Origin: a plasmid
Direction: 5' to 3' (one strand)
Length of the DNA stretch: 64,000 nt
Sequence record: NZ_CP118102.1
How positions within the stretch are numbered: the first letter of the stretch is position 1; every line of letters starts with the position of its first letter. A model generated the notes under the pieces. The model ran no database searches. It was not told the origin of the DNA and was given only the letters and a program-made list of their open reading frames with translations. The position numbers and the translations under genes are program-made. Positions 4,719 through 25,374 of the stretch are shown here, piece after piece.

Positions 4719-4728
4719 TTTGTGTTGT

Positions 4729-6221: not shown

Positions 6222-6652
6222 GTCTCATTCCTCCATGTGTTAAGCATATACGAAATCAGAGTTGCGAGGTTGGGATAAAATTGGAGCAGATTGCGAAAAC
6301 GGCGTGTGCATTGGCGACGACTGACCGAAAGGGATGACGACCAACGGCATTGACAGCGGCCGACATACGGAAGGGCGACAGACCAAGGTGTTCGAGGCGG
6401 CGGACGTAAGCAACTGCCGGCGATTGCGGTGAAAAAGATAACGGCTTGCGAAGGTATATAACGAGATTGCGACGAACGTTTATCCGACTTTACAACTTGG
6501 ATAACTCATACTATGATAGCGTCAAGCGCCGGTTAGGTGCAAGGTTATCGCGTCTTCGCGCTTAGTCTTGAACAAGAGGAGCGAGACTTCAGAATCCCGA
6601 TATAACAAAATGAAGCGCAATTCAATACAAATCCCGATTCGGAGGCGGTCAT

Positions 6653-8489: not shown

Positions 8490-8733
8490 CGACGGGAGAA
8501 GGCGAACCAGCCGGAGCGCAGGAGGAGAACCGCCCCGCGCCGGTTGATTCGTCATGCCCGAAAACGGCCGTACGTCGCGTCCTGGAGGGGCGCTGTGCCA
8601 TCCGGCAAACGGATCAGACGCCGGGCTATCGGTCAGACGGAATGAACGACAGGAGGCTGCGCGATCCGGAGGAAAAGTCCGAAACGGCGGCAAGTCAGGC
8701 CTCATACCCGCTCTACAAGGAGGAATAAGTCAG

Positions 8734-10561: not shown

Positions 10562-10572
10562 GGAGGACAACG

Positions 10573-12804
10573 ATGAACAGCAAATCAGCGAGCTACGACG
10601 TCGTGGTCGCCGGAGGCGGACTGGCCGGCTTCAGCGCGGCGGTGGCAGCGGCCCGGGAAGGCGCGCGCACCGCGCTCGTGCAGGATCGACCCGTGCTGGG
10701 CGGCAACAGCTCGTCGGAAATTCGCGTGACGCCGCACGGCGCCGGACGGTTTCATGCCTACGCCAGAGAGACGGGAATCATTACCGAGGTGACGTGCGAG
10801 GATCGGGCGAACAACCATGAGCAGTTTCACAACAACGGCTGGACGAACAGCGTGTGGGATATGACGTTGTACGATCTGGCGATGAGAACGCCGAACTTGA
10901 CGGTGTACCTGAACACCTCCGTGCAGCAGGTCGAAAAGGATGGAGACCGGCGCATCGCCGCCGTTACCGCGAGAGTCGCGGGGGCGGAGACGGAGCTGCG
11001 GCTGCAAGGCCGCGTCTTCATCGATTGCACCGGGGACGGCACGGTCGCGGCGCTGGCGGGCAACGAGTGGCGGATGGGCAGCGAGAGCCGCGACGAATTC
11101 GGCGAGCCCCACGCTCCGGAGCGCGCAAGCGGCGACACGATGGGCAGCTCGATCCATTTCCGCGCCCGCGATACGGGGCGGCCGGCTCCGTTTCGCGCCC
11201 CCGAATGGGCCGTCGCGTATGACGATCCCGCCTTTTTCTACGCGCACAATCGCAGACCGTACGACATTCGCGCCGGTTACTGGTGGTTCGAGCTGGGTTC
11301 GCCTTGGGATACGATACACGACGCGGAGACGATCCGCCATGAGCTGACGCGCCATGTGCTGGGCGTATGGGACTGGATCAAGAACAAGGACCCGCTGACC
11401 CGGGACAAGGCGGTGAATTACGCGCTCGACTGGATCGGCCAGGTGCCGGGCAAAAGGGAAAGTCGGCGCATAATGGGCCGTTATCTGCTGACCGAGCATG
11501 ACGTGCTGGAAGGCAGAAAGTTTGCCGACGAGGTCGCCTATGGCGGGTGGTATTTGGACCTGCACATCCCCGGAGGGCTGCTCGCGCCGACAAGCGAGCT
11601 GCCGGGAGCGGCCGAGCTGGTCAGCCCCTACGGCATTCCGCTGCGCATTCTGATCGCCAAGGATATCGACAACCTGCTGATGGCGGGGCGCAACGTCAGC
11701 GTCACGCACGCGGCGCTCGGCACCGTCCGCGTCATGTCGACGACTGCCATTATGGGCCAGGCGGCAGGAACCGCCGCTGCCGTCGCGCTTAGGCGCGGCA
11801 TTCCCGTCCCGGACGTGCCGGGGACGGACGCCATTGCGGAGGTGCAGCAGACGCTGCTGCGGGCCGGCTGTTTCCTGCCGGGCGCAGCGAACGTCGATCC
11901 GCTCGACCTCGCCCGGCAGGCGGAGGTGACGGCCAGCAGCGAGGCGGAGCTTGCCGAGACGGAGCCGGGAGACGAGGGAGAGGCGCTGGACATCCGTCGC
12001 AGCCAGTGGGTGGCCGTCGCGGCGGGCGAACTGGAGCATCTGGACGTCTGGGTGGCGAATCGCGGCGACCATCCGCTCTCGTTCGAAGCCGAATTGCATC
12101 GCACCGGGCATATTTGGGATTACGACGTGCGGCAGCAAAACCGGCTGGCCGCAGCCATACTGGAAGTTCCGCCGGCCTGCGAAGGCTGGATTCGATGGCT
12201 GCCGCGGCTGGACGCGCGAAGCGGCCTTCCGGAAGAAGGCTATGTCCGGCTCGATCTGCTGAACGGCCGCGGGCTGATCTGGCGCCGCGCCAATGCCGTG
12301 CACCCCGGGCTTCCGTCGGCCAGCGAACTGGAGCCCGGCCGCCTGCGCAGCCACGACGACGGACGGACGATGAGCTTCCGCGTCAGTCCGCCCCAGCCGA
12401 TCTATTCGGCCGCGCAGACGGTCAGCGGCGTCACCCGGCCGCATCGGACCGTCAACCTGTGGCGTTCGGCGCCAGGCCTGCCGCTTCCGCAGACGCTGGA
12501 GCTGCGATGGCGCGAGACGCGGGAGATCGGGACGGTCGAGCTGACTTTTCCGGGACATCTGCTTCAGGATCACAACCGTTATCCCGCCTACTATCGCGAA
12601 CCCGACTGTCCGCGCGACTACAGAATTGAGGCTTGGACCGCCGGGGGCTGGGAGAGCGTCCACGAGACGTTCGGCAATTATCAGCGCCGCGTGTCTCATC
12701 GACTCTCCCGACCGGTACGGACGGAGCGCATCCGCATCGTCTTCCTGGCATCCAACGGAGGCGCGGAAGCGGCGGTCTACGAGATTCGCTGCTACGGGAT
12801 ATAA
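10573..12804 (+). CDS. FAD-dependent oxidoreductase (743 aa) with C-terminal discoidin/F5-8-type-C-like domain
   Basis: Likely true start ATG 10573 (MNSKSASYDVVVAGGGLAGFSAAVAAAREGARTALV) with RBS AAGGAGGA. GxGxxG FAD-binding motif. C-terminal ...RIRIVFLASNGGAEAAVYEIRCYGI is typical of a galactose-binding-like domain. The ORF-track start at 10381 sits inside the upstream gene. Confidence 0.7.
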   Translation: MNSKSASYDVVVAGGGLAGFSAAVAAAREGARTALVQDRPVLGGNSSSEIRVTPHGAGRFHAYARETGIITEVTCEDRANNHEQFHNNGWTNSVWDMTLYDLAMRTPNLTVYLNTSVQQVEKDGDRRIAAVTARVAGAETELRLQGRVFIDCTGDGTVAALAGNEWRMGSESRDEFGEPHAPERASGDTMGSSIHFRARDTGRPAPFRAPEWAVAYDDPAFFYAHNRRPYDIRAGYWWFELGSPWDTIHDAETIRHELTRHVLGVWDWIKNKDPLTRDKAVNYALDWIGQVPGKRESRRIMGRYLLTEHDVLEGRKFADEVAYGGWYLDLHIPGGLLAPTSELPGAAELVSPYGIPLRILIAKDIDNLLMAGRNVSVTHAALGTVRVMSTTAIMGQAAGTAAAVALRRGIPVPDVPGTDAIAEVQQTLLRAGCFLPGAANVDPLDLARQAEVTASSEAELAETEPGDEGEALDIRRSQWVAVAAGELEHLDVWVANRGDHPLSFEAELHRTGHIWDYDVRQQNRLAAAILEVPPACEGWIRWLPRLDARSGLPEEGYVRLDLLNGRGLIWRRANAVHPGLPSASELEPGRLRSHDDGRTMSFRVSPPQPIYSAAQTVSGVTRPHRTVNLWRSAPGLPLPQTLELRWRETREIGTVELTFPGHLLQDHNRYPAYYREPDCPRDYRIEAWTAGGWESVHETFGNYQRRVSHRLSRPVRTERIRIVFLASNGGAEAAVYEIRCYGI

Positions 12805-12944
12805 CGGGATTGCCTTTTCATAACACAAGCTTGGCATTCTCCAATAACCTACTTTACACCTCGGAAAACACTGTATTATGATGAGGCCATGCGAGAGGCC
12901 GCGCACAACGCAAGTCGAATCCATATTCAAGGAGACAATGACCG

Positions 12945-13760
12945 ATGAACGCTAAAACAAAAACGTTATTCGCCGTATTGACGCTGGTTGCGGCACTGAT
13001 CGCCGCAGGCTGCTCGAACGATAAAGGAAACGGCTCCGCACAGTCGGCCGCCGCGCAAACTTCGCTGGATAAGCTGAAGCAGAAAGGCGAGTTCGTCATC
13101 GCGACGACCGGCACGTATCCGCCGTACGCCTTCCACGAGGAGACCGGCGACCGACCGCTGACCGGCTTCGATATCGAGCTGCTGACCGAGGTGTTCGCGC
13201 GCATCGACGGCGTGAAGCTGTCGTTCAAGGAAGCGGAATGGGACGGCATGCTTGCAGGCCTGGACGCGGGACGGTTCGACTCGATCCACCAGATCGGAGT
13301 CACGGAGGAGCGCAAGGAGAAATACGATTTCGCCGACCCGTACCTGATCTCGTACCCGACGCTGATCGTGCTGGACGAGACGAAGGATATCAACAGCTTC
13401 GAGGATTTGAAGGGCAAGAAAGTGTACGGCTCCAATACGAGCATTTACGGCAAGCTGGCCGAGTCCTACGGCGCGGTGCTCGTGCCGGAGGGCGAAAGCC
13501 TGGAGCTGCTGAAGAACAAACGGGTGGACGCGATCATTTTCAACAATCTGTACTTCCTGGAGCTGAAGAAAAACCGTCCCGACCTGAACCTGAGAGCGGC
13601 CGATCAGGCCGATACGCAGGAGTTGGTGGCGCTGCCTCTCGTGAAGGGCGGAGACGGTACGGCGATCGCGGCGTTTAACGAGGCGCTGAAGAGCGTGAAG
13701 GAAGACGGCATATACGAGAAGCTGTCGCTCAAATGGTTCGGCGAAAACTTGCTGAAGTAA
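12945..13760 (+). CDS. Polar amino acid ABC transporter substrate-binding lipoprotein
   Basis: Signal peptide with lipobox LIAAGCS. Family-3 solute-binding-protein pattern (GEFVIATTGTYPPYAF..., ...WDGMLAGLDAGRFD). Confidence 0.85.
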   Translation: MNAKTKTLFAVLTLVAALIAAGCSNDKGNGSAQSAAAQTSLDKLKQKGEFVIATTGTYPPYAFHEETGDRPLTGFDIELLTEVFARIDGVKLSFKEAEWDGMLAGLDAGRFDSIHQIGVTEERKEKYDFADPYLISYPTLIVLDETKDINSFEDLKGKKVYGSNTSIYGKLAESYGAVLVPEGESLELLKNKRVDAIIFNNLYFLELKKNRPDLNLRAADQADTQELVALPLVKGGDGTAIAAFNEALKSVKEDGIYEKLSLKWFGENLLK

Positions 13761-13782
13761 GGCGGATAAAGGAGGGCTCGGC

Positions 13783-14460
13783 ATGAGCCAGGAGCGCGCG
13801 GAAAGACTGTGGGACATAGCCCTCCACTCGTTGTGGCCGCTGCTGCAGGGGATGCTGAAATACACGATTCCTCTGTCGCTCGTCTCGTTCGCGCTGGCGC
13901 TGATCTTCGCTCTGCTGATCGCGCTGGCCGGCCTGTCTCCCAGGCCGTACCTGCGGTTGCCCTCGCGGTTCTACGTCTGGATCGTCCGGGGCACGCCCAT
14001 TCTCGTTCAACTGTTCATCATTTTCTATGGACTTCCGAATGTCGGCATCGTGCTTCCCGCGTTCCCGACGGTCGTCATCGCGCTGACGGTGGCGGAAGCG
14101 GCGTACTGCTCGGAAATCATGCGCTCGACGATCAAATCTCTGCCGCAGGGGCAGTGGAAGGCGGGATATTCCCTCGGAATGTCCCCTTTCCAGGTGCTCA
14201 GACGCGTCATCTTGCCGCAGGCGGCGCGGATCAGCATTCCGCCGCTCGGCAACCAGTTCATCGGCCTGTTCAAGACGTCGTCGCTGGCCGCTCTCGTCAC
14301 CCTGCCGGACCTGTTCGGCGTGGCCAAGCAGATCGCCGCCTCGACGTTCGAGCCAATGCTGCTCTATATTATCGCGGCCGGCTACTATTTGCTGATCTGC
14401 TCCGCGCTGACGGTCGGCCAGCACCGGCTGGAGAAGAAGTTCGGCAACTATTCGCTGTAG
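13783..14460 (+). CDS. Polar amino acid ABC transporter permease (HisM/GlnP-type)
   Basis: 225 aa with multiple TM segments and EAA-like loop [42 protein letters not shown]. Confidence 0.85.
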
Positions 14461-14480
14461 CGGGAAAGGAGGGGATCGCC

Positions 14481-15275
14481 ATGTTGAACGTTACGCAGCT
14501 TCGCAAAAGCTTCGGCCGCACCGAGGTGCTTCGAGGCATCGACCTGCGCGTGGCCAAGGGGGAGACGACGATTGTGATCGGTCCTTCAGGTTCAGGCAAG
14601 TCGACGCTGCTGAGTTGCCTGAACCTGCTGGAAATTCCCGATTCCGGGGAGCTTGAGCTGGACGGCCATCGGATGAAGTTCGGGGACGGCGGCAAAAAGC
14701 GGACTCGCGAGCTGATCGGCTATCGGCAGAAAACGGGCATGGTGTTCCAAAGCCATCAGTTGTTCCCGCACCGGACGGCGCTGGAGAACGTAATCGAAGG
14801 GCTGATCGTCGTCAAGCGCTGGAATCGCAGCGACGCGCGCCGACGGGGCGAGGAGCTGCTCGCCAAAGTCGGTCTGCGCGAATTCGCCGACCGCTACCCG
14901 GCACAGCTGTCCGGCGGGCAGCAGCAGCGGGTCGGCATCGCCCGGGCGCTTGCGATGGACCCGGCGGTGCTGCTGTTCGACGAGCCGACGTCAGCGCTCG
15001 ATCCGGAGCTGGTCGGCGAAGTGCTGCGGGTGATGAAGGAACTGGCGCGCGAAGGGATGACGCTGATCGTGGCGACGCATGAAATGAACTTCGCCCGGGA
15101 GGTGGCCGACCGCGTCATCTTCATGGAAAAGGGCTTGATCGCGGACGAAGGCACGGCGGCCCATATTTTCGGCGCGAGCCGTAACGAGCGGGTGCGTCAG
15201 TTTCTCAGCCGGTTCGACGCGGCGGCGGAATTGCCGTCCGTTCCGGTTCAGGTTCAGGTTCAGGCAACTTTATAA
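14481..15275 (+). CDS. Polar amino acid ABC transporter ATP-binding protein
   Basis: Start ATG 14481 after RBS AAGGAGGGGA. Walker [10 protein letters not shown], signature [15 protein letters not shown], Walker [13 protein letters not shown]. The 488-aa ORF 13809..15275 is a frame artefact fused across the permease. Confidence 0.9.
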
Positions 15276-15299
15276 TAGAAGAAAGGCGGGTGGCAGCCG

Positions 15300-16652
15300 A
15301 TGACGGCAAACCGCAAACAATTGAAACTGGGCTTTATGGTGCACGGCGTCGGGTCGAGCGCGAGCGCATGGCGGCATCCGGCGGTCGAGTCGGACGCGAG
15401 CGTCGCGTTCGACTTTTACCGGCGGCAGGCGCAGATCGCGGAGGCCGGCAAGCTGGACCTCGTCTTTATCGCGGACGTGCTTTATATTAACGAGCGATCG
15501 ACGCCGCATTTCGTCAACCATCTGGAGCCGCTGACGCTTCTGGCCGCGCTGGGCGCCGTTACTTCGCGGATCGGCCTCGTCGGCACGCTGTCGACGACGT
15601 ACAGCGAACCCTACGCCGGAGCGCGCCAGCTCGCTTCGATCGACCGGATCAGCGGAGGACGGGCGGGCTGGAACGTCGTGACGACCGGCATGCGCGGAGC
15701 GGCGCTCAACTTCGGCAAAGCGGAGGACGCGCACCCGGATCACGATACGCGCTACCGGATCGCGGGCGAATATTTGGAGGCGGCGCGCGGACTGTGGGAT
15801 TCGTGGGAGGACGACGCGTTCGTAAGGGACAAGGAGAGCGGCGTCTTTTACGACCCGGACAAGCTGCATACGCTCGACTACCGGGGCGAGTTCTTCTCGG
15901 TTCGCGGTCCGCTGAACATCGCGCGCTCCAAGCAGGGGCATCCGGTCATCTTCCAGGCGGGCTCCTCGGAGGACGGTCAGAACTTCGCCGCCCGCCATGC
16001 CGACGCGGTCATGACCGGCATTACCGAGCCGGAGGAGGCGCGGCGTTATTATCGGGAGCTGAAGCGCAAAGCCGCTGCAGCGGGACGAAATCCGGACGAT
16101 CTGCTCGTTATGCCGAGCGCCGCCGTCGTCGTAGGCCGAACGAGGGAAGAGGCGGAGGAGAAGTACGAGGCGACCGCTTCGCTCCTGTCGATCGAGGAGG
16201 CGATGCGGTATTTCGCGCAGTTTTTCGACTTTCACGATTTTACGCAGTATCCGCTCGACGGTCCGTTTCCCGAGCTGGGCGACTTGGGGCGCAGCAGCTA
16301 TCAGAGCTTTACGGACAGGGTCAAGCGCGAGGCGCGGGACAAGGGGCTGACGCTGCGCCAGACGATTCGCAGGTTCGCCGCGCCGAAGCCGCGTTTTCTC
16401 GGTTCGGCAGCCGAAGTGGCGGACGGCTTGCAGGAATGGTTCGAGACGGGGTCGGCCGACGGATTTATATTGCACAGCGACGTGCCGGGCACGTTGTCCG
16501 ACTTCGCGGAGCTTGTCGTGCCGGTGCTGCAAGAGCGCGGTTTGTTCCGCCGCGAGTACGAGGCCGATACGCTGCGGGGCATGCTCGGCTTGCCCGTGCC
16601 GCGCAATCGCTATGAGGCCGCGCGGGCCGCACGCTTCAAGGACGGCGGGTGA
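15300..16652 (+). CDS. LLM-class flavin-dependent monooxygenase (NtaA/SnaA/DszA family)
   Basis: 450 aa. MTANRKQLKLGFMVHGVGSSASAWRHP... is a typical bacterial-luciferase-like N-terminus. Confidence 0.8.
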   Translation: MTANRKQLKLGFMVHGVGSSASAWRHPAVESDASVAFDFYRRQAQIAEAGKLDLVFIADVLYINERSTPHFVNHLEPLTLLAALGAVTSRIGLVGTLSTTYSEPYAGARQLASIDRISGGRAGWNVVTTGMRGAALNFGKAEDAHPDHDTRYRIAGEYLEAARGLWDSWEDDAFVRDKESGVFYDPDKLHTLDYRGEFFSVRGPLNIARSKQGHPVIFQAGSSEDGQNFAARHADAVMTGITEPEEARRYYRELKRKAAAAGRNPDDLLVMPSAAVVVGRTREEAEEKYEATASLLSIEEAMRYFAQFFDFHDFTQYPLDGPFPELGDLGRSSYQSFTDRVKREARDKGLTLRQTIRRFAAPKPRFLGSAAEVADGLQEWFETGSADGFILHSDVPGTLSDFAELVVPVLQERGLFRREYEADTLRGMLGLPVPRNRYEAARAARFKDGG

Positions 16653-17865
16653 ACAGCCAGAACAGCAGGGCGGCGGCGCTGACAGCCGCGCCGAGCAGAC
16701 AGACGCCGGTCCAGCCTGCGGCATGGTAGGTCATCGTGGAGGCGATCGAACCGGCCGCGCTGCCGAACGAGTAGAACATCATGTAGCCGGCGGTCAGCCT
16801 GCTCCGGGCTTCCGGCCGCACGGCCAAGATCAGGCTCTGGTTGGTCACATGCACCGCTTGCACGGCCGCGTCGAGCAGGACGATGCCGGCGAGCAGCGCG
16901 AACAGCGAATGCGGAGTCATTCCGATCGGCAGCCAGGAGCCGAGCAGCAGAAGCAGCGCCGCTCCGGTCGTTCGCTGTCCGAGGCCGCGATCGGCCCATC
17001 TGCCGGCGCGCGCGGCCGCCATCGCTCCGGCGGCTCCCGCCAGTCCGAATGCGCCGATCGCCGTATGCGACAGCGAGAACGGCGGAGCGCTGAGAGGCAG
17101 CGCCAGCGAAGTCCACAAAATGCTGAATGCGGCGAAAATCAGCATGGCAAGGACGGCGCGAACACGCAATATCCGCTCCTGCACGAACAGTGCAAGCATC
17201 GATCGAAGCAGTCCGAGGTAGGCGACGGATTCGCTCGCAGGCTCGCGAAGAGGCAGCGTCCGAAGCAGGGCGACGGCCATAACGGACGTCAGCGCCGCCG
17301 ATGCGAAGTACACGGCCCGCCAGCCGCCCATATCGGCCAATAAGCCCGCGAACGACCGGGCGAGTAAAATGCCGATGCCGATGCCGCTTGTCACCAAGCC
17401 TACGATGCGTCCCCTCTCGGCAGGGGAAGCCAAAGCGGCCGCGTATGCGACCAGCGTCTGCGTCACGACGGCGAGTCCTCCGACCGCAGCCATGCCGACG
17501 AGCAGCGTCGCGCTCGAAGATGAGAAGCCGACCGCCAGCAGCGCGGCGACGGACAGCAGCATCTGCGCCCCGATCAGCTTGCGGCGGTTGAGCAGATCGC
17601 CCAGCGGCACGAGCAGCAGCAGCCCGAGCGCATAGCAGATTTGCGTTACTGTAACGACGATGCCGATCGTGGAGCGGGCGATGCCGAATTCTCCCGCGAT
17701 CGAATCCAACAGCGGCTGAGCATAGTACACATTGGCGACTGCCAGCCCCGCGGCAGCGGCAAACAAATAGGCCGCACGCCGCGAAAGATAGGCCGGCTGC
17801 GCGGCTCCTGCTTCAAGATGACCGACTTCTGCCGTACTCCCCGAATGCGAAACGCTATTTTTCAT
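16636..17865 (-). CDS. MFS transporter
   Basis: 409 aa with about 12 predicted TM helices. Convergent 17-bp overlap with the monooxygenase gene. Divergent from the TetR gene. Confidence 0.8.
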   Translation of the reverse strand: MKNSVSHSGSTAEVGHLEAGAAQPAYLSRRAAYLFAAAAGLAVANVYYAQPLLDSIAGEFGIARSTIGIVVTVTQICYALGLLLLVPLGDLLNRRKLIGAQMLLSVAALLAVGFSSSSATLLVGMAAVGGLAVVTQTLVAYAAALASPAERGRIVGLVTSGIGIGILLARSFAGLLADMGGWRAVYFASAALTSVMAVALLRTLPLREPASESVAYLGLLRSMLALFVQERILRVRAVLAMLIFAAFSILWTSLALPLSAPPFSLSHTAIGAFGLAGAAGAMAAARAGRWADRGLGQRTTGAALLLLLGSWLPIGMTPHSLFALLAGIVLLDAAVQAVHVTNQSLILAVRPEARSRLTAGYMMFYSFGSAAGSIASTMTYHAAGWTGVCLLGAAVSAAALLFWLFTRRP

Positions 17866-17978
17866 ATCTCCATTCCTCCTGTTTCTTCTGCATTTCTATT
17901 CTGTACCGAACAGTAAATAATAGAGCGTCACAAATATAGCTTTAAAGAATCGAATCTGTCAACTCCTGCGGTAATCCT

Positions 17979-18007
17979 TTGACAATCAACTTTCCAAGGC
18001 GTATATT
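17979..18007 (+). promoter_or_regulatory. Sigma-A-type promoter for the TetR gene
   Basis: TTGACA (17979-17984), 17-nt spacer, TATATT (18002-18007); about 35 nt upstream of ATG 18043. Confidence 0.5.
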
Positions 18008-18042
18008 TTAATATACCGTTCGATACGAAATGAGGGAGAAGT

Positions 18043-18681
18043 ATGGCGCGTACGAGGGAGTTCGACGAGGAGCAGGCGCTCGATGCGGCGATGCGGCTGT
18101 TTTGGGAGAAGGGGTTCGAGGGGACGTCTTTAAGCGATCTGACGGCTGGCATGGGCATACAGCGCCCGAGCCTGTACGCGGCTTTCGGCGACAAGAAGGA
18201 GCTGTTCGAAGCCGCGCTCCGCAAGTATACGGGCGACCATGCCGCATACGTCCGCGCCTCTCTGCAAAATCGCCCTTCTATTATAGAAGCTTTCCGCAGC
18301 CTGTTTCGGAGCACGACGGCAACGGTGGACGAAGAGGGGGCGAGCCGGGGATGCTTCTGCATCAACTCGATGGTGGAGCTGGCGCCTCATGACGAGAAAT
18401 TCGCGGTTTTGACCAGGGAGCATCAGATGTATATCGCCGTTCTCTTCCAGGAAGCAATCGAGCGTGGGATTCGTTCCGGCGAGCTGGCCCCCGGCATTCA
18501 TGCCAAAGGTTTGGCCCAAGCGCTGGCCGTCTCGTGGATCGGACTGACGGTGCTGGCGAAGTCCCGTCCGCCCCGGTCGTTTCTCGATCAGTCGGTGGAG
18601 GAAACGGTCGCGCTGCTGCGGCGGGGCGAATCGGATCGTCCATCATTCGGAAATTGTGACGGGGCCGACATAAATTTATGA
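18043..18681 (+). CDS. TetR/AcrR-family transcriptional regulator
   Basis: N-terminal HTH EEQALDAAMRLFWEKGFEGTSLSDLTAGMGIQRPSLYAAFGDKKELF. Divergent from the MFS transporter (classic repressor/efflux pair). Confidence 0.85.
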   Translation: MARTREFDEEQALDAAMRLFWEKGFEGTSLSDLTAGMGIQRPSLYAAFGDKKELFEAALRKYTGDHAAYVRASLQNRPSIIEAFRSLFRSTTATVDEEGASRGCFCINSMVELAPHDEKFAVLTREHQMYIAVLFQEAIERGIRSGELAPGIHAKGLAQALAVSWIGLTVLAKSRPPRSFLDQSVEETVALLRRGESDRPSFGNCDGADINL

Positions 18682-18771
18682 CAAAATGATGGTGTCTCCG
18701 CGAAAGCCGCGAATGATCGCGCAAGTTATGTTAGCATAGGGGGAGGATAATCTGGAAGGAGCGGATAAGCC

Positions 18772-19191
18772 GTGCAGCGAGTTCAAAACAGTCGTCTGAG
18801 TCTTGAAATGCCCACCAAATCGTTTATCCATGTCTTATTCGATACGATAAAGATCGGAATTATCAAATCCAACTTGATCGCGATGTTCGCCGGCCTGTGC
18901 ATGGCTCTGTACGTAGAAGGAATCCCGTTCTTCGACAAGATCGGCACGATCGTCCTGGCCGGGATCGGATCTTTCCTCGTCATCGGTTCGGCGGGCGCGT
19001 TCAACAATTTGTACGACCGGGACATCGACGCCATTATGGACAGAACGAAGAAGCGGCCGACCGTGACCGGATACGTCGGCACGAGGAGCGGCCTGTTCAT
19101 CGCCATCTGGACCGCCGTATTCGGCCTGTTCGCCTTGTACGTTGCGTCTCCGTTGGCGGCGCTGTTCGGCTTTCTCGGCCTGTTCCTGTAG
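18772..19191 (+). pseudogene. ctaB: Protoheme IX farnesyltransferase (heme O synthase), N-terminal ~139 codons only, truncated at the GC-content break
   Basis: UbiA-family signature GSAGAFNNLYDRDIDAIMDRTKKRPTV. The ORF ends ...GFLGLFL then TAG at 19192, where a full-length CtaB would continue for roughly 160 more residues. GC content drops sharply just downstream. Confidence 0.6.
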
Positions 19192-19222
19192 GGGTACCGC
19201 CAACATTTTAACGATAATATAC

Positions 19223-19259
19223 GCTAAGCCTTCGGATGTACCTGGCTTAGCGTTTTTTC
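19223..19259 (+). terminator. Rho-independent terminator
   Basis: gctaagcc ttcggatgtacct ggcttagc followed by gttttttct. Confidence 0.5.
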
Positions 19260-19375
19260 TTACTCTAAGCCCAATAGTCCGGGCTACACCGCCCGGACTA
19301 CCGATCACTCACCTTCCTGTTGTTTCAGCGGTCGTAATGAGTTAGCGGACATCAAGTGTATGCTTTGAAAACACC

Positions 19376-19407
19376 AAATGACCGCTAATCTTAATTAGCG
19401 GTCATTT
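19376..19407. promoter_or_regulatory. Perfect 14-bp inverted repeat with 4-bp spacer (candidate operator or recombination site), plus a third half-site at 19341-19352
   Basis: aaatgaccgctaat ctta attagcggtcattt; upstream copy ttagcggacatc. Confidence 0.4.
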
Positions 19408-19429
19408 AATATTAGGAGATCATTCCTTC

Positions 19430-19606
19430 ATGATGGTTCGTAGAGACGATTTGCGCAACCGAGGAAACACTCGTGCAGCAAATGAATCGGCAACGAATCG
19501 CGCTATAGGAATCGTTTCTGCGCGATACTTCACGAAGCATATTTTTTATTTTAATATCAATTCGATGATGTTGCTTGTTTTGCCACCGGATGACGAACTT
19601 TTTTGA
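19430..19606 (+). CDS. Small hypothetical ORF (58 aa, Arg-rich); doubtful
   Basis: RBS AGGAGA 11 nt upstream of ATG. MMVRRDDLRNRGNTRAANESATNR... Its 3' end overlaps the converging gene 19546..19890 by 60 bp. Confidence 0.2.
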   Translation: MMVRRDDLRNRGNTRAANESATNRAIGIVSARYFTKHIFYFNINSMMLLVLPPDDELF

Positions 19607-19890
19607 CGCATTGTCATCCTCCCTGCACCTGCCATTTCCACGAGAATTTGCCCGATGGCGTTTGTGGTATCAATCACCATGTTTTTGATTGCTTTAGGTT
19701 CCAGCGTCACCCCGTTGTCGATGGCTGTGCCATCGATCACACTTGGCAATACATTGCCGTTTGCACTGTCTTTGACGACCATGTTAATATTTTTTTCTTC
19801 GTCGCTGCCATTGTTGATCGCCACCGAAAGTGTGGTTTCTCCGTTTTTGCGAGACATCGTGAACGTGGTTTTTGAACTGTTTTCAAGCAT
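19546..19890 (-). CDS. Hypothetical protein (114 aa, Asn/Ser/Thr-rich)
   Basis: ORF with coding-like composition. No family recognised from sequence alone. Confidence 0.45.
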   Translation of the reverse strand: MLENSSKTTFTMSRKNGETTLSVAINNGSDEEKNINMVVKDSANGNVLPSVIDGTAIDNGVTLEPKAIKNMVIDTTNAIGQILVEMAGAGRMTMRQKSSSSGGKTSNIIELILK

Positions 19891-19904
19891 GGGTAAACGC
19901 CTCC

Positions 19905-20273
19905 TTAAGCGATTGAATTATTTTGGTTTAACATATCAAAAATGCGCTGTTGTTTATTTTTTTCATCATCGAGCAGTTTGGAAATAATCCCTTCCAAATT
20001 CGTCGTCCCCGACGTGCCGCAGGTACAGCCGCTTGTTGATCCGCTAGAAGGCTGACAGTTACAGCAGGTACGGCATTTGCAAAACAAAAGCAATAAGGCT
20101 AAAAGCACGGAATTGTCGCTAATTTGAATTTGATTGCCAACGGTGAAGTTGTTGCCATTGGAGACGGTGTTTGCCGAGTTGTTTGCCGAGCTCGCTAACC
20201 CGTTTGCCGTGCTCACTAAGGCGCTGTTGTAGTCAAAGGTGTTGTTGGATTCACTGGTATTCGTGGATTCCAC
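19905..20273 (-). CDS. Hypothetical Asn/Ser-rich protein with Cys-rich core
   Basis: 122 aa. Core CKCRTCCNCQPSSGSTSGCTCGTSG. Divergent from the Ubl operon. Confidence 0.45.
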   Translation of the reverse strand: MESTNTSESNNTFDYNSALVSTANGLASSANNSANTVSNGNNFTVGNQIQISDNSVLLALLLLFCKCRTCCNCQPSSGSTSGCTCGTSGTTNLEGIISKLLDDEKNKQQRIFDMLNQNNSIA

Positions 20274-20407
20274 AACACATCGAAGAGCATATAAACCACC
20301 ATGGAGAGGAAGAGAACACTTTTAAACTCCCATTACCGGAACTCATTCAATTTGCAGAACTCCTTGGCAAAGAAGAAAGTGACCGGTACGTAGCCAATTT
20401 CAATAGG

Positions 20408-20812
20408 ATGTTGAATCGTAGTTGCGATTATCTAGATTTCAGTATGGAAGGGATAGTTGTAAACGCTAGTATTCAAATTACCTTGACTGGCTTCTATGGT
20501 ATTTTATCTCCCTTTCTTAAAGTGTTGTTAGAAATTAAACAAATGGTGCAGCAAGTTTTTCGTGATAGCAAGTCACAGATAACTAACAGCTCTCAGAATG
20601 TAGTTTTACTGAAGGAGCTTAATCAAAGGGTTGGATCCGTTCCTGAAGTATCCATCACTGACAGCACAACTGTTGTGTTTGCCCAGATCATGAAGTTCCT
20701 CGGTGGGAACTCATCTGAGAGCAGTGATAACTTAACCTTCAGTGATATGAGAAACATTTTAACCCATGTACTTGACCAGGTGACTATAAATAGGAAGGAT
20801 GATGTGGCATGA
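20408..20812 (+). CDS. Candidate ubiquitin-like protein precursor (first gene of the Ubl-E2-JAB-E1 operon); start uncertain
   Basis: 134 aa from the first in-frame ATG. No good RBS. The frame is open back to 20171 without a canonical start. Internal ...FAQIMKFLGG at residues 92-101, followed by a 33-aa tail. Stop overlaps the next start (ATGA). Confidence 0.4.
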   Translation: MLNRSCDYLDFSMEGIVVNASIQITLTGFYGILSPFLKVLLEIKQMVQQVFRDSKSQITNSSQNVVLLKELNQRVGSVPEVSITDSTTVVFAQIMKFLGGNSSESSDNLTFSDMRNILTHVLDQVTINRKDDVA

Positions 20813-21522
20813 GCCAGCAGCATTTAGTAGAGAAAAACAATACAGGAAATGAAATGGTTATTCGGATCCGCGACCATTATGCACTTCCCATTGTTGAGGA
20901 GTATATTGACGGTGTTAAAGTCGGTGAAGGTATTTATACACATGAAGCGGTTGCCAGTGCTATTCTTCAGTCTCTAGAAACTGGATTAGTACGAACACCT
21001 GTCATGCCAAGAGGTGCTCTCCATTTCGTTGAAATAACGAAGTCCCGTCAGTTTATCTTTATGGAGGTGTCTCCTCAAAACAGGAAGGCTTATTATCACG
21101 AAGCCGTAATTGAGGAAGTTCCTTTTCCAAGATTGGTATTCGGCTTTGAAATTCATGAGCGTGATAAAAATTGGGCAATCAGTCAAGTATACCTTGCAGC
21201 TTTGGAGGACCAAATCATTCCCAGTGAGGAATCGATGGTCTTTTTTTATCCCTACACCAACGTTAAGGAGAATTTTCAAGTTTGCTGGGGTAGTCAGCAG
21301 TTACCGGATATTGAACGGTTATCGCAGCTATCCACTTTTCCAGAACTGTTCTTTAACTCTCCAAATTCGGACTGTTACTACTATAGTTCTAATAACAGCG
21401 ACATGAATTATCGCGAGCTGGTGACCAAGATTAAGGGAGAAAGATTTCCGCAAGAGTATCTTAAGGCGACTAATCTTACACTGCAGGCATGGTTCAATCG
21501 GATCGTTGGTTTTGAAGTGTAG
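20809..21522 (+). CDS. E2-like (UBC-fold) protein candidate
   Basis: 237 aa. FFYPYTNVKENFQVCWGS resembles the E2 HPN...C catalytic loop, with a variant YPYTN and Cys 7 residues after the Asn. Translationally coupled on both sides. Confidence 0.5.
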   Translation: MSQQHLVEKNNTGNEMVIRIRDHYALPIVEEYIDGVKVGEGIYTHEAVASAILQSLETGLVRTPVMPRGALHFVEITKSRQFIFMEVSPQNRKAYYHEAVIEEVPFPRLVFGFEIHERDKNWAISQVYLAALEDQIIPSEESMVFFYPYTNVKENFQVCWGSQQLPDIERLSQLSTFPELFFNSPNSDCYYYSSNNSDMNYRELVTKIKGERFPQEYLKATNLTLQAWFNRIVGFEV

Positions 21523-21559
21523 AACGAGATAAATATTAGTTAAATTAGGAGGAATAAAA

Positions 21560-22960
21560 ATGTCTAACAACAATTATGGTCAAGGTGATCTATTCTCTTA
21601 TTTTGGTGATGATTTCGCTGAAGCATTAGAATATGAGGAGAAGAATAAACTACAGCATACTTCTGACCAATCTATTGAAGAAGATCATAAAGATAACCCT
21701 CCATCAGAGAGTCTTACTTCTGATCCAGCAGCTGAAAAAAGTCAAGGTGAAAGCCGTCCGACGAAGCTAATCTCACTGGAATCGCGCAGAAGAGTATCAG
21801 ATTCTTTCTCTAATGATGGTTGTCCTGATGCATGTTCTGATAAAGAATTAGATGACGATGAAAAAGATGCTTTAGAGGATAAGGCAAGCGATGAACAAGA
21901 AGCGGACAAGCGTGAGCTCAGTGGGGAAAGCGGAAACACTTCTGTGATCAAATCAGATGAAAAAACACCAGTTACCGCTAAGAAGGAAATAGAAAAACCA
22001 GAACTGAATCATGCTACCTTTATTTGCTACTCAGGGCTAAGCATTTCTATAACAAAATTCTTCTCTGAGGATAAGCTAGCTGGTCTTGAGCTTGAGGATG
22101 TTCGGAAACGCCTGGAAAAAGATTACCCAGAGCTTTCAAAACAGCGGACAAAAATGGATTGGGACAAGAAGAAAAATATAATTGTGCCTATGGTCACCGG
22201 TGGAAAAAAAGGGGCCCGTTTTACAAATGGCACTCGTGGTTTTTATTCATCTTCTCAAGAACTCATTGAGCATCAGGAGCCAATATCCTACCTTGCTGCA
22301 CAAGATGGGTACTATGAAATACGAGAGAACCTGATAGGAGTATTTATAGGGAGAACGGCTGCTGAAGAGCTGATTGAATGGGAAGGATTCTCTGTATTTA
22401 ATTCAGTCTTACCCAAACATCTAGATCGTGAGCCTTGCAGACCTGGATTTAAATACAAATTACCTAAGATACCCAAGCAACTCTTTGCTCAACTGGTCTC
22501 CTTTTTTATGGACTATACAGATTACGATGTGGAGGTTATGGGTGTTTTCTACTACGATATTGATCGCCAGCAGTTTATTTTGGATGTTCCTTATCAATCT
22601 GTCACCAAATATTCAGTTAACCCTTGGTACTCTGTTTATCCCGGACATGTAGTTAAGGTCGCTGAAATCCATTCACATAACACGATGCGTGCAGATTTTA
22701 GTTCGATTGATGATGAAGATGAAGTAGGGACCATGTTATACGGAGTAGTTGGTAAGATCAAAAAAGGACATGCAACAGACGTGTTTTTTGATGTCAGGAC
22801 TCGTGCAGGAATGGCAGGAAAGTTCATACCTATCGATCCCAAGGTATTTATCGAAGGAGAATTAACGAGTAACCGGCTAAATAATCATATCGATTATGTC
22901 GCCTATCCTAAAGACTGGGTTAAAAAGGTGACAATCATAGGAGGCAATAGAAATGATTAA
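21560..22960 (+). CDS. JAB/JAMM (MPN+) metalloprotease with long acidic low-complexity N-terminal region
   Basis: 466 aa. Strong RBS AGGAGGAATAAAA before ATG. Exact JAMM motif EIHSHNTMRADFSSIDD (HxHx7Sx2D). N-terminal ~150 residues are D/E/S/K-rich. Confidence 0.8.
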   Translation: MSNNNYGQGDLFSYFGDDFAEALEYEEKNKLQHTSDQSIEEDHKDNPPSESLTSDPAAEKSQGESRPTKLISLESRRRVSDSFSNDGCPDACSDKELDDDEKDALEDKASDEQEADKRELSGESGNTSVIKSDEKTPVTAKKEIEKPELNHATFICYSGLSISITKFFSEDKLAGLELEDVRKRLEKDYPELSKQRTKMDWDKKKNIIVPMVTGGKKGARFTNGTRGFYSSSQELIEHQEPISYLAAQDGYYEIRENLIGVFIGRTAAEELIEWEGFSVFNSVLPKHLDREPCRPGFKYKLPKIPKQLFAQLVSFFMDYTDYDVEVMGVFYYDIDRQQFILDVPYQSVTKYSVNPWYSVYPGHVVKVAEIHSHNTMRADFSSIDDEDEVGTMLYGVVGKIKKGHATDVFFDVRTRAGMAGKFIPIDPKVFIEGELTSNRLNNHIDYVAYPKDWVKKVTIIGGNRND

Positions 22961-23786
22961 TCTACTTTCACTCACTCCAAACTACACATCACTTTATTAT
23001 TATATAGTCTTGATTGGTGCAGGAGGGAATGGTGGATATACGGTGCAACGTCTAACTAAGATGATGAGTGCATTTAATAATGTTCCATCCTTTCTTATGA
23101 TTGCTGATCCGGATACTGTAGAGGAAAAGAACATTCTGCGGCAGCCTTTTATCCCGTCTGATATTGGGCTCAAGAAATCCGAGGTATTAGCTAAGCGATA
23201 TGGCGGTACATATGGATTAAAGATCGGTTCTTTCTCAGATTCATATATTGAGTCGGTAGAACAAATAGAAAAACTTTTTTCTCTGACGGATTACCGGCAT
23301 AAGCCTGGACAATACATTCAAAAGGTACTTATAGGTGCTGTAGATAATGATTTTTCAAGAAACATCATGAATGATTACTTCAATCGGACGGATGATATCA
23401 TTTATATTGATGCCGGCATCGAAGGGGTTTTCATGCCAAGTGAGCAGCCACAAGATCAGTGGTCTACCGAGGAACTAAAGGACCACATGGATAGTGGCTA
23501 TTCCGGTCAGATTGTTGTAGGACTAAAAAAAGACGGGAAGGAGATCTTACCGCCTCTAAATGTGGTTTACCCTATAAATGCGGAAGATGCTATCCCTCCG
23601 TCTCACAACTGTGGGTTAGAGCCTTATCAACCACAACGGATGATCGCCAATGAATATGCTGCCATGCATATATCTACAGTTCTTAATGAGCTTTTTAGCT
23701 CAAATTCGATTCATATTCATATATCGAACTTCTCAGCAAGGAATGGTAGCTGCCGTCCTATTTATTTTGAAGAGGTACAGGAATAG
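22953..23786 (+). CDS. E1-like (ThiF/MoeB/UBA family) adenylyltransferase
   Basis: 277 aa. IVLIGAGGNGGYTVQRL...IADPDTVEEKNILRQPF (glycine-rich nucleotide loop plus DxDxVexsNLnRQ motif), ...GLKKSEVLAKR, ...GAVDNDFSRN. Start overlaps the JAB gene stop. Confidence 0.85.
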   Translation: MINLLSLTPNYTSLYYYIVLIGAGGNGGYTVQRLTKMMSAFNNVPSFLMIADPDTVEEKNILRQPFIPSDIGLKKSEVLAKRYGGTYGLKIGSFSDSYIESVEQIEKLFSLTDYRHKPGQYIQKVLIGAVDNDFSRNIMNDYFNRTDDIIYIDAGIEGVFMPSEQPQDQWSTEELKDHMDSGYSGQIVVGLKKDGKEILPPLNVVYPINAEDAIPPSHNCGLEPYQPQRMIANEYAAMHISTVLNELFSSNSIHIHISNFSARNGSCRPIYFEEVQE

Positions 23787-23805
23787 CCGCCCAATTGTCA
23801 CATTT

Positions 23806-23838
23806 AAAAAGGGGGCATAATAATTACCCCCTTTTTTC
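23806..23838 (+). terminator. Rho-independent terminator after the E1 gene
   Basis: aaaaaggggg cataataatta ccccc tttttt. Confidence 0.7.
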
Positions 23839-23858
23839 TACAATGAAACACTAGGCAA

Positions 23859-24043
23859 TTGACGAATTTTGTCTTTTTTGCTATAACTAAAGTATTACAT
23901 GAGTTATAAATTTTTCTTTATCGTTGACTATTCGATAAAGAGAGAGTTAAACCGATAATCGGCTAATAAATATTTTGGGCTTAATTTGCCATGGAGAACA
24001 TAGACACCGGAGGTGTCTATTTGTGTTTCTATGGCTTTTTTTG
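23859..24043 (+). ncRNA. Candidate small RNA or structured leader: sigma-A-like promoter followed about 100 nt later by a strong intrinsic terminator
   Basis: TTGACG (23859-23864), 17 nt, TATAAC (23882-23887). Nested hairpin ccatggagaacatagacaccggaggtgtctatttgtgtttctatgg plus T7 at 23989-24043. No ORF of meaningful size between them. Confidence 0.3.
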
Positions 24044-24156
24044 TGCCTTACGGGAGGTCATACATAATTAACGAGTACAGAGATCCTTATCAAGTTAGTG
24101 ATGAATTGTTGATCCCTGCAGAAGACTAGGTTGAAACGCTATGTGCCGAGCAATTT

Positions 24157-24954
24157 GTGCTTCCCACACTTCCACCAGAGATGTACGCTGTGGACCAGTA
24201 TGACCACTATCATATTAACTTTTCAGGGGGTGCCGACTCACTTGCGCTCGCCTTGATTATGAAATATGGATACAAAATACCATCCGAAAAGATGGTTCTT
24301 GTCCATATGCGAGTTGATGGAAATCCGGAAGAGAAGCAGCAACTCTTTGATTGGCCGCAGACCGATGAATACTTGCGATACGCAAGTGAAAAGCTGGATA
24401 TTCCATTGGTCGTTATTTGGGGTGACAAGTCACTTGAAGAACGTATTCGAGATCGCAAAATGTTTCCGGATAAAAGCTGCAGATTCTGCACTTCTTATAC
24501 GAAGCGAGACGTTTACGCAAAGTGGGTTCGTCAGTTCGATGACTGTAAAATTCTAATGCTTACTGGGGAACGCTCAGAAGAATCATCTGATCGAGCGAAG
24601 GAGCCAATATTTGAGTATCATCCTGCCCATGCAACTAAAAGAAAGAATCGTGAAGTGCATTGGTTCCGACCGATCAAGAATATGCTTAAATCCCAGGTTA
24701 AGCAGCTGGCCGCCAATTACAGTATTGAACTACACCCTTGTTATCAATGGGTTTCACGTTGCAGCTGTCGTTTCTGTATCTTTAATACCGCTTCGGAAAT
24801 GGAGCGTGTCGCTCAGCTCTACCCTGATGATTGGGAGTACTTAAAACGTATGGAGTTACATCTTGGCCATACCATGAAAACCAAAAGGGGTAAACCAGTC
24901 CTTCTTTCTGAATTTGTGAATGAATCTCAAGTCACCATATCAGACTTCATCTGA
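24157..24954 (+). CDS. PAPS-reductase-family PP-loop ATPase (phosphoadenosine phosphosulfate reductase-like)
   Basis: PP-loop SGGADS near the N-terminus. C-terminal Cys cluster CYQWVSRCSCRFC. GTG 24157 or ATG 24181 as start. Confidence 0.7.
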   Translation: MLPTLPPEMYAVDQYDHYHINFSGGADSLALALIMKYGYKIPSEKMVLVHMRVDGNPEEKQQLFDWPQTDEYLRYASEKLDIPLVVIWGDKSLEERIRDRKMFPDKSCRFCTSYTKRDVYAKWVRQFDDCKILMLTGERSEESSDRAKEPIFEYHPAHATKRKNREVHWFRPIKNMLKSQVKQLAANYSIELHPCYQWVSRCSCRFCIFNTASEMERVAQLYPDDWEYLKRMELHLGHTMKTKRGKPVLLSEFVNESQVTISDFI

Positions 24955-24993
24955 AGAGAATCGATAGAACTAACTATAAAGGAGGCAATAAAC

Positions 24994-25374
24994 ATGCAGA
25001 CAATTTTCAAAGAAAATCATAAACAACGTATGAACCCGGAGCTTATTAACCAGATGGAATCTGTAGTTAAAAGCGTTATAGTTAACGAAAAATTTCATGC
25101 AGACTTTTATTTACATGACCTTAAAGTAATGGACTCTTCCAATGGAGGAATATTTGCCTGGTATGTCTATGATTGCGGTACTCATTTAATTCAACTGAGT
25201 AATTATGATGAAGTAATCGCATTTCAAAAGGAATGGATCCAAAGCATGCCTAGCATCCGTGATAAGCATTGGAGAGATTGTTTATATGTTTGTGATACCG
25301 CCAAAAGTGAACTCAAAATCGTTAAGAGTTTTAGCGAGGGTAACTTGGTAGAGCAGCTCAAATTAGTCGTCTGA
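24994..25374 (+). CDS. Hypothetical protein (126 aa)
   Basis: RBS AAGGAGG before ATG. No family recognised. Confidence 0.5.
   Translation: MQTIFKENHKQRMNPELINQMESVVKSVIVNEKFHADFYLHDLKVMDSSNGGIFAWYVYDCGTHLIQLSNYDEVIAFQKEWIQSMPSIRDKHWRDCLYVCDTAKSELKIVKSFSEGNLVEQLKLVV

Follow-up and report, generated by a model that had tools for sequence, protein, structure and literature searches.

An apparent TnpI-type Tn3-family mini-transposon at a composition break in a Paenibacillus urinalis plasmid, and the probable import of Cohnella chromosomal DNA

Introduction

Transposons of the Tn3 family move by replicative transposition through cointegrates, and in a 2020 survey of 190 family members the tyrosine recombinase TnpI was found in Tn4430, Tn5401, and TnBth4 only (PMC7157771). 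In Tn4430 the resolution site at which TnpI acts (IRS) consists of an inverted core with a 4-bp spacer and of direct accessory motifs (PMC2847244). Non-autonomous derivatives of the family, such as TIMEs and mosaic derivatives, are mobilized in trans and also mobilize neighbouring DNA (PMC4133298). Here we describe a 64,000-nucleotide stretch of the plasmid record NZ_CP118102.1 (hereafter the window), in which base composition falls abruptly inside a heme O synthase gene (ctaB), exactly at one end of what appears to be a non-autonomous Tn3-family mini-transposon of the TnpI/IRS type, like Tn4430, Tn5401, and TnBth4. We consider it likely that the window is part of a Paenibacillus urinalis plasmid carrying a unit of about 43 kb, made up of the mini-transposon and about 40 kb of chromosomal DNA from a Cohnella close to strain CIP 111063.

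The element resembles Tn4430 in that its full-length version has a tnpI-tnpA module beside an IRS of the same layout and is flanked by 5-bp duplications, and differs from it in that the full-length element here encodes a TnpI of 305 amino acids and carries two extra passenger open reading frames (ORFs). Its 38-bp inverted repeat (IR) begins GGGGTACCGCC, and is probably similar to the IR of Tn4430; a literature search for the latter sequence returned cloning primers only. With Tn5401 and TnBth4 the likeness lies in TnpI, which shares 60% identity with the TnpI of a Tn5401/TnBth4-like element from the Bacillus thuringiensis plasmid CP043231, and in the resolution region, which in such elements is 82% identical to the IRS stretch of the window over 70 nucleotides and has the same ATGWCCGCTAAY-type motifs. 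The transposase (TnpA), in contrast, is only 31% identical, the hosts here are Paenibacillaceae, and the full-length element carries an ORF of 114 codons (orf114) and a repetitive one of 556 (orf556), with no ParDE toxin-antitoxin pair. In the window copy tnpI is deleted, and of the IRS the core and one accessory motif remain, as a putative recombination site.

Like TIMEs, the mini-transposon lacks a transposase, keeps the IRs of the family, and was presumably moved in trans; unlike the 262-bp TIMEs it is far larger, keeps passenger genes and the core of a resolution site, and is found in Gram-positive hosts. The larger arrangement recalls prime plasmids of the F' type and the deletion circles of intramolecular replicative transposition, with chromosomal DNA beside a mobile element on a plasmid and with the outward-facing transposon ends that a circle of transposon and neighbouring DNA would show, but its final joints are non-homologous and lie inside genes, not at the element or its resolution site, and the transfer, unlike that of a prime plasmid, would cross genera, from Cohnella to Paenibacillus. 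We regard the locus not as a new kind of system but as a further instance, with a rare TnpI-type transposon and with inter-genus transfer.

Results and discussion

A heme O synthase gene cut at a transposon end

The GC content of the window is 62.9% over positions 1-19190 (about 0.8 at third codon positions, GC3) and 38.8% over positions 20271-64000 (GC3 about 0.32), and an intermediate stretch of 1.08 kb at 19191-20270 has 45.0%. In 1-kb bins the values lie at 59-67% up to 18 kb and at 32-51% from 19 kb on, so the break is as abrupt as the initial annotation of this DNA had stated, though its size is about 24 points and not the 30 (66% to 36%) given there.

The break falls at the end of the 5' fragment of a ctaB/ctaO-like gene (Table 1), the product of which contains ...AFNNLYDRDIDAIMDRTKKRP... 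and has the UbiA-family signature NNLYDRDIDAIMDRTKKRP, as had been noticed initially. The fragment matches the Pfam family UbiA at positions 2-101 of 250, that is, over the first 101 only, and scores 93.2 bits against TIGR01473 (profile positions 4-117 of 281), for which the cut-off is 210.3; an intact CtaB allele of 307 amino acids (L095) reaches 269.4 bits. By that cut-off the ORF is a gene fragment and not a full-length heme O synthase. Its truncation after codon 139 had been recognized correctly, but the stop had been placed at 19192, where in fact the TAG occupies 19189-19191, its TA coming from the Tyr140 codon and its G being the one that opens the transposon repeat. The stop codon of the ctaB fragment was thus created at the junction.

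The break can be placed to the base, at 19190|19191. Position 19191 opens a 38-bp terminal repeat that starts GGGG, as is typical of the Tn3 family (GGGGTACC...; IR-L in Table 1), and that is identical to the left repeat of a complete 6.8-kb transposon on a plasmid of Paenibacillus sp. Cedars. The right repeat (IR-R), which lies outside the window, matches IR-L at 32 of 38 positions in complete copies. From the other side, homology to six uninterrupted ctaB alleles ends at 19190 in every comparison; these alleles come from Cohnella sp. CIP 111063 (L146, 99.47% identity to the window), ERZ795039 (L095, 99.4%), two JGI metagenomes (L117, 99.1%, and L118, 96.8%), SRR11508356 (L113, 98.7%), and a Bacillota metagenome-assembled genome (MAG; L003, 86%). 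To judge from these alignments, a loss of homology shared by six alleles at one base cannot be due to chance. The empty-site alleles read ...CCTGTA|CGTCGTTCC, the native form being ...CCTGTA|CGTCGT at codon 140, and CTGTA is therefore the predicted target-site duplication. Complete copies of the transposon have duplications of the same length (TATCT in the Cedars plasmid, TTATA in a Brevibacillus plasmid), and of the window copy the left half, CTGTA, alone is visible.

What the initial annotation had offered as one explanation, a large integrative and conjugative element (ICE) or island inserted into ctaB, is thus borne out as far as truncation by a mobile element at a biological junction is concerned, but not as regards the nature of that element. 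The joint is a Tn3-family IR with no att-like repeats, and the nearest tyrosine recombinase gene, 7.5 kb off at 26727-27674, is part of the plasmid backbone, being present in plasmid CP118110, which does not have the junction.

The remainder of ctaB was sought in several ways. The window contains no 3' half of the gene (tblastn with an intact homologue), and a protein search with the C-terminal 168 amino acids gave no match above 80% identity. That search is word-indexed and its negatives do not amount to absence: it missed the known intact allele too, and full-length CtaB proteins that are exact or more than 90% identical are in the same collection. None of six predicted right-junction ORFs was found in the protein collection, and a metagenome scan with the 25-mer immediately right of the insertion site found two intact alleles only.

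At the inner edge of IR-L lies a hairpin followed by a U-run (Table 1), and none of 200 shuffled sequences folds as well (0/200). A consensus terminator scan had missed it, the loop being longer than 8 bases, and it was folded directly instead. It resembles an intrinsic terminator, and from the folding model we infer that it would end transcripts coming from the ctaB fragment.

Recurrence of the junction in independent assemblies

The second explanation offered initially was an artefactual join of two contigs. A chimera of a high-GC genome and a low-GC plasmid, formed for example across a shared transposon copy, would agree with the extreme jump in composition and with flanks that are 99.5-100% identical to different organisms, and the transposon is indeed a multi-copy, highly conserved repeat in many genomes. 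Against this, the exact 139-amino-acid truncated product is encoded by no fewer than 10 contigs, which stem from independent sources (among them GCA_047229085.1, SRR23080378, SRR23401455, SRR9179416, and SRR29842799), and the junction 19190|19191 itself was found in at least five independent runs or assemblies, spanning several years. The Logan contig SRR23080378_92 spans window positions 4660-23039, and the part of it that was fetched (8772-23039) is 100% identical to the window and passes unbranched through both this joint and a second one, 20270|20271, that is discussed below and that was seen in two sequencing runs (SRR23080378 and SRR23401455). An unbranched contig through the 1.08-kb fragment is not expected if the repeat had two contexts in the sample. 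Moreover, the reciprocal of the second joint was found in the same sample, and the P. urinalis plasmids in PLSDB have no copy of this transposon from which a mis-join could be seeded. With the junction recurring and unbranched short-read contigs crossing it, an assembly chimera is very unlikely, and the record need not be treated as chimeric.

The mini-transposon and its full-length relatives

Plasmids of Brevibacillus borstelensis and Paenibacillus sp. Cedars match two segments of the window at 100% identity, one of 155 bp that begins at 19189 and one of 929 bp that begins at 19342. The 6.8-kb Cedars transposon has the order IR-L, tnpA, tyrosine recombinase, resolution site, the 114- and 556-amino-acid passenger ORFs, IR-R. 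In the full-length element (L002) tnpA lies at 4036-7005 and tnpI, for the tyrosine recombinase of 305 amino acids, at 7020-7937, both on the minus strand, and the full-length TnpA has 989 amino acids and scores 1016 bits against NF033527, for which the cut-off is 500. Window positions 19191-19343 correspond to L002 3922-4074, the first 153 bp of the element, and window positions 19342-20270 to L002 8001-8929, in both cases at 100% identity. Between them a deletion has removed tnpI and all but the last codons of tnpA (Table 1), together with one accessory motif; IR-R is also missing from the window copy. No Tn3 transposase is encoded anywhere in the window (tblastn), so that the DDE transposase of about 1000 amino acids that typifies the family is lacking and the copy is a non-autonomous derivative.

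The IRS remnant consists of the accessory motif TTAGCGGACAT at 19342-19352 and the core ATGACCGCTAAT-CTTA-ATTAGCGGTCAT at 19378-19405; in the full-length element there is a second, direct TTAGCGGACAT motif, which is deleted in the window. An origin of the tnpA-tnpI deletion through TnpI was considered; its endpoints share TT only and do not lie within the core site.

The passenger genes link the window copy to a large set of relatives. The exact orf114 protein is listed in 170 collection blocks from Paenibacillaceae chromosomes and plasmids, and it stands beside tnpI-tnpA in nine of the ten contexts shown, the tenth being the mini copy in a P. urinalis chromosome. Given this spread across Paenibacillaceae replicons, the transposon is widespread and recently active. 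Of orf556, residues 447-556 are encoded at 20237-19908 with 100% identity (tblastn), and other copies extend beyond the point at which the window copy is cut. A complete 2.9-kb mini copy with both IRs is present in the P. urinalis chromosome CP118108.

An independent defective copy was seen on the B. borstelensis plasmid CP144923 (L001 6003-10026). It has a different internal deletion, which keeps 402 bp at IR-L, and an IS30 insertion, and its 5-bp duplication TTATA is intact. The different deletion implies that loss of tnpA and tnpI has happened more than once.

A split transposon in a P. urinalis plasmid

The right-hand end of the transposon fragment is of another kind. At 20270|20271, transposon position 8929 is joined to position 107940 of the plasmid, and the reciprocal joint, from plasmid ...107936 to transposon L002 8930... 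and on toward IR-R, is present in contig SRR23080378_157. The 3 bp between the two plasmid positions (ACG) are missing, and the joint shows no microhomology. The mini-transposon is thereby split inside orf556 and the plasmid inside gene RS26960, with both reciprocal joints in one sample (SRR23080378). A 213-amino-acid ORF that runs over 20270|20271 is an artefact of the fusion; the intact gene, of 243 amino acids, is found in CP118110.1.

To the right of this joint, two complete circular plasmids of P. urinalis, CP118110.1 and CP118105.1, match 20271-23057 and 23052-64000 at 100% identity (in CP118110.1, at 107940-110726 and 123844-164789). This part of the window is collinear and near-identical with these large plasmids, apart from two insertions that exist in the reference plasmids only. 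The backbone carries a cluster of E2, ThiF, and phosphoadenosine phosphosulfate (PAPS) reductase genes, a tyrosine recombinase gene, IS200/IS605 and IS30 elements, group II introns, and copper and heavy-metal genes; of the mobile elements that had been listed initially for this side, an IS200/IS605 tnpA, an IS30 transposase, two group II introns, and the tyrosine recombinase were recovered.

Contigs of SRR23080378 supply what lies to the left of the window. In contig SRR23080378_52, IR-R abuts the 3' side of a substrate-binding protein (SBP) gene, SBP445, which is followed by two permease genes, two further SBP genes, and an ATP-binding cassette (ABC) ATPase gene. Other contigs connect these genes, via genes for a TetR regulator, a P450-BM3-like protein, and an M28 peptidase, with the DNA at which the window starts. 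Where IR-R is inserted, native Cohnella DNA reads ...TTCCCTTTA|GGATGGAGG (starting GGATGG), a site that is intergenic and downstream of the SBP gene. The unit therefore reads plasmid, transposon from 8930 to IR-R, a Cohnella block of about 40.2 kb, IR-L to transposon 8929, plasmid. About 21.0 kb of the block lie left of the window and 19.2 kb inside it, and with the 2.9-kb mini-transposon the imported unit comes to about 43 kb. On either side the block stops exactly at a transposon end, and both of these ends point outward from it. The order of protein accessions for the PUW24 plasmid, WDH85275 (RS26955), WDH85277 (SBP445), WDH85292 (epimerase), and WDH85301 (GFO), agrees with the predicted gene order, and the window probably derives from that plasmid.

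The GC-rich side as the import

Over window positions 8042-19190 the block is 99.47% identical to contig MWSG01000011.1 (283 kb) of Cohnella sp. CIP 111063, which beyond the insertion site continues with an intact ctaB, ahpC, and ahpF, and it is collinear with the chromosome of Cohnella sp. LGH (CP072117) at 80-86% identity. The protein cluster of the intact CtaB consists of Cohnella proteins, and several block proteins have exact or at least 90% identical matches named Cohnella. No close match to the high-GC side was found among PLSDB plasmids. In addition, the 5.44-Mb P. urinalis chromosome CP118108.1 has a block that matches positions 1-12933 at about 100% identity, and the native DNA beside the block there (with genes for catalase, Fur, GerA spore-germination proteins, an aldo-keto reductase, and a glutathionylspermidine (GSP) synthetase) has a GC content of 41-51%, or about 46%. 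Literature searches found no published G+C value for P. urinalis.

The Cohnella identity of the block, the native flank of about 46% GC, and the identity of the low-GC DNA with P. urinalis plasmids together indicate that the GC-rich DNA was imported and that the AT-rich DNA belongs to the resident plasmid, which reverses the polarity assumed initially. There the low-GC side had been taken as the island; it is 100% identical to a P. urinalis plasmid, and the high-GC side is 99.47% identical to Cohnella. Likewise, there is no junction of the kind that had been expected beyond the right end of the window: the block has its other boundary at IR-R of the same transposon, about 21 kb beyond the window's left end. 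The jump in GC alone does not tell which side is foreign.

The opposite arrangement, a high-GC host with a low-GC ICE, island, or whole plasmid inserted into its chromosomal ctaB, has in its favour that ctaB is interrupted, that all DNA to the right is low in GC and rich in mobile elements, that a tyrosine recombinase gene is present at 26727-27674, and that cointegrate formation or one-ended transposition by a Tn3-family element could in principle insert a plasmid from an IR (PMC4133298). We nevertheless consider it very unlikely. The other side of the block is IR-R and then plasmid again, so that the high-GC DNA is the insert; exact block proteins are annotated in P. urinalis, and RS26955, which in the same record precedes SBP445 by two accessions, is labelled '(plasmid)'; the native DNA of P. 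urinalis has about 46% GC; and the integrase and the joint have the features described above, the one belonging to a backbone that is also found without the junction, the other being a transposon IR free of att-like repeats. A related model, in which a P. urinalis chromosome had taken up a plasmid through cointegrate formation or, starting from a lone IR-L, through one-ended transposition, was dropped in view of the reciprocal joint, the Cohnella identity of the block, and the 46% GC of the native flank.

With the block read as an import, the truncated ctaB is a hitch-hiking gene fragment and not a disrupted gene of the present host, and it should be annotated as a hitch-hiking pseudogene fragment.

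The block has several features of its own. A tandem array of 51-bp repeats at 4253-4718 (9.1 copies, 88% matches) varies between strains in copy number and sequence, and short-read contigs break there. An alpha/beta-hydrolase gene (6653-7620) encodes 354 amino acids in other copies of the block and is split into ORFs of 214 and 121 amino acids in the window and in SRR23080378, about 100 bp apparently being missing at a 20-bp overlap (7232-7251); this split is a strain marker that ties the window to the SRR23080378 isolate. A segment of 14.7 kb (3902-18652), which begins with the 51-bp array and an amidase gene and extends through the TetR gene beside ctaB, occurs in the CIP 111063-like lineage and is absent from Cohnella sp. 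LGH and the MAG OH_PFB_39, in which ctaB lies about 0.5-0.6 kb from an acyl carrier protein (ACP) synthase III gene. It is an older insertion or deletion within Cohnella.

Three contexts and a possible circular intermediate

The unit of transposon and block was met in circularly permuted form in three settings, which are this plasmid, the chromosomes of P. urinalis, and a third replicon, low in GC, with qacH. In CP118108 and CP118106 the mini-transposon is intact, with 2.9 kb and both IRs, and its flanks are unmatched (AAGGA and TAAAG), as expected after rearrangement. The order in the chromosome is native GSP synthetase gene (truncated), SBP439 (truncated), permeases, SBP445, IR-R, transposon, IR-L, and then the block from window position 12933 leftwards, and the copy looks like the same circle opened inside the block, with 12934-19190 deleted next to IR-L. 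At the chromosomal joint (L140 9497 / L139 4193), a GSP-synthetase ORF has its first 107 or so codons from the Cohnella SBP gene, and there is no homology.

The third lineage, seen in P. urinalis-type assemblies (GCA_047229085, GCA_047246765, SRR298427xx, and many other samples), keeps the joint of truncated ctaB to IR-L. Here the breaks in the transposon lie at L002 9193 and, for the other side, 267 bp from IR-R. The unit is flanked at one end by a qacH/TetR cassette (L085 11763-13200) that is 99.8% identical to small Bacillus cereus plasmids and at the other by low-GC DNA with an ATP-dependent DNA ligase gene (L141 13600-20924). Inside the block 22 kb are deleted, and the M28 peptidase gene is thereby fused with a permease gene. 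The presence of qac genes in P. urinalis has been described in a hospital-surveillance paper (PMC12799223).

The chromosomal copy has an intact transposon and lacks 12934-19190, and the plasmid copy has a split transposon and keeps that segment, so neither derives from the other, and both must descend from a common precursor. The circular permutation in three contexts points to an intermediate in the form of a circle, which entered its recipients through non-homologous joints. We picture a Cohnella donor in which the block had a copy of the element on each side, in direct orientation. Two insertions could have produced this arrangement, or else the element moved within one molecule, by replicative transposition from the SBP445 site into ctaB; the transposase would have been provided in trans by a full-length element. 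Recombination between the two copies, for which the surviving IRS core could serve TnpI, or the transposition itself could then have set free a circle that contained both transposon and block. Such a circle would have recombined illegitimately with recipient replicons, and a single non-homologous crossover would have fused it with the plasmid. An equivalent route would be integration of the plasmid into the ctaB copy, followed by excision of the prime-plasmid type through the other copy. That replicative transposition took place by way of a cointegrate is something we infer from membership of the family (PMC7157771) and from the outward-facing ends around the block.

In its strongest form, in which the transposon and about 40 kb of Cohnella DNA existed as a free circular translocatable unit that entered at least three replicons using neither homology nor the transposon ends, this proposal is tentative and rather doubtful. 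A different route, likewise not very probable, dispenses with the free circle: the transposon inserted into the Cohnella ctaB, a plasmid integrated, and the unit left by prime-type excision, or by one-ended or cointegrate transposition, the other two contexts being later rearrangements and not independent integrations. For the plasmid copy a single non-homologous event would then suffice, together with recombination, homologous or by TnpI, between copies of the transposon, and the deletions of 12934-19190 in the chromosomal copy and of 22 kb in the qac lineage do speak of ongoing rearrangement. On the other hand, with neither copy derivable from the other, a common precursor must still have integrated at least twice, in separate events.

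Our preferred reading, of a P. urinalis plasmid with an imported unit of mini-transposon and Cohnella chromosome, is itself not free of difficulties. No donor Cohnella that carries the transposon was found in our searches, and no source of transposase was identified in the relevant strains. The right copy of the duplication (IR-R|CTGTA and the 3' part of ctaB) did not turn up in any search, and the event that created 19190|19191 is therefore deduced from the exact IR end alone. The far junction of the chromosomal copy in CP118108, from truncated SBP439 to native DNA, was predicted and not seen. The GC estimate for native P. urinalis DNA is taken from some 10-15 kb, and the SRR23080378 contigs, an independent assembly, possibly come from the window's own isolate and so perhaps not from an independent strain. 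Finally, the integration joints have neither homology nor a recognizable recombinase signature, and three independent non-homologous integrations are uncomfortably many, so that a mechanism we have not recognized may be involved.

If the preferred reading is correct, about 40 kb of DNA passed naturally between genera, from a Cohnella with 60% GC to P. urinalis with 46%, the isolates of which include blood-culture strains, and the junctions required to reconstruct the route are all preserved. The joining of a qacH cassette to the same transposon in sister isolates links this plastic region to disinfectant resistance of relevance to hospitals. If the integrations were not random, the locus would point to a way, so far undescribed, in which large chromosomal segments are carried from one genus to another by Tn3-family elements, for which an end-joining pathway of spore-formers or an unrecognized recombinase would be candidates.

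Table 1. Features of the window around the two joints and in the flanking DNA (positions in the 64,000-nucleotide stretch).
Feature	Position	Strand	Remarks
Cohnella-type chromosomal DNA with metabolic and transport genes (putative import)	1-19190		62.9% GC; ends inside ctaB
5' fragment of heme O synthase gene (ctaB/ctaO-like)	18772-19191	+	GTG start, 139 codons
CTGTA, predicted left copy of 5-bp target-site duplication	19186-19190	+	From empty-site alleles
IR-L, 38-bp terminal inverted repeat, GGGGTACCGCCAACATTTTAACGATAATATACGCTAAG	19191-19228	+	Single copy in window, 0 expected by chance
Hairpin and U-run at inner edge of IR-L	19221-19258	+	Fold -17.5 kcal/mol, z = -3.98
tnpA remnant, last 13 codons	19305-19343	-	Internal deletion joint 19342/19343
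Remnant of TnpI resolution site (IRS)	19342-19405	+	One accessory motif and core
orf114, transposon passenger gene	19546-19890	-	No Pfam or NCBIfam match
orf556, 3' end of repetitive passenger gene	19905-20270	-	Last 110 codons; cut at 20270
Non-homologous joint, transposon interior to plasmid backbone	20270-20271		No shared bases
Plasmid gene, homologue of PUW25_RS26960, 5'-truncated	20271-20812	+	First 190 nt gone
Backbone of large P. urinalis plasmid	20271-64000		38.8% GC; identity to CP118110.1 and CP118105.1
CTAACT, unoccupied target site of another, 13.1-kb Tn3-family transposon	23052-23057	+	Duplicated CTAAC(T)

Further features of the plasmid backbone

The 13.1-kb transposon that is absent from the window occupies 110727-123843 of CP118110.1 (L083 8166-11845; L084 18727). 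It has the IR GGGGTACGACC... (GGGGTACGACCGAGG...) and a serine recombinase, carries the ribulose-monophosphate and pentose-phosphate genes hxlAB, zwf, gnd, and pgi, and interrupts a ThiF-like gene in both P. urinalis plasmids in PLSDB.

That gene is part of the cluster at 20809-25374, which encodes an E2 protein (Prok-E2_D), a 466-amino-acid protein with no family match, a ThiF/E1-like protein, a PAPS-reductase-like protein, and a product of 126 amino acids, and the first gene of which is the one truncated at 20271. Plasmids of Paenibacillus sp. Cedars and P. lautus carry homologous clusters, at about 72% identity. A role in defence or modification is possible; when the cluster was scanned with PADLOC, weak matches to E1-E2, SspD, and BrxP alone were obtained, those to SspD and BrxP with the PAPS-reductase-like protein.

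Two group II introns with ltrA, at 37763-39671 and 62688-63980, explain local GC peaks of about 51%. Their domain V-VI matches both score 51.6 bits, and given these identical scores the two are likely copies of one intron.

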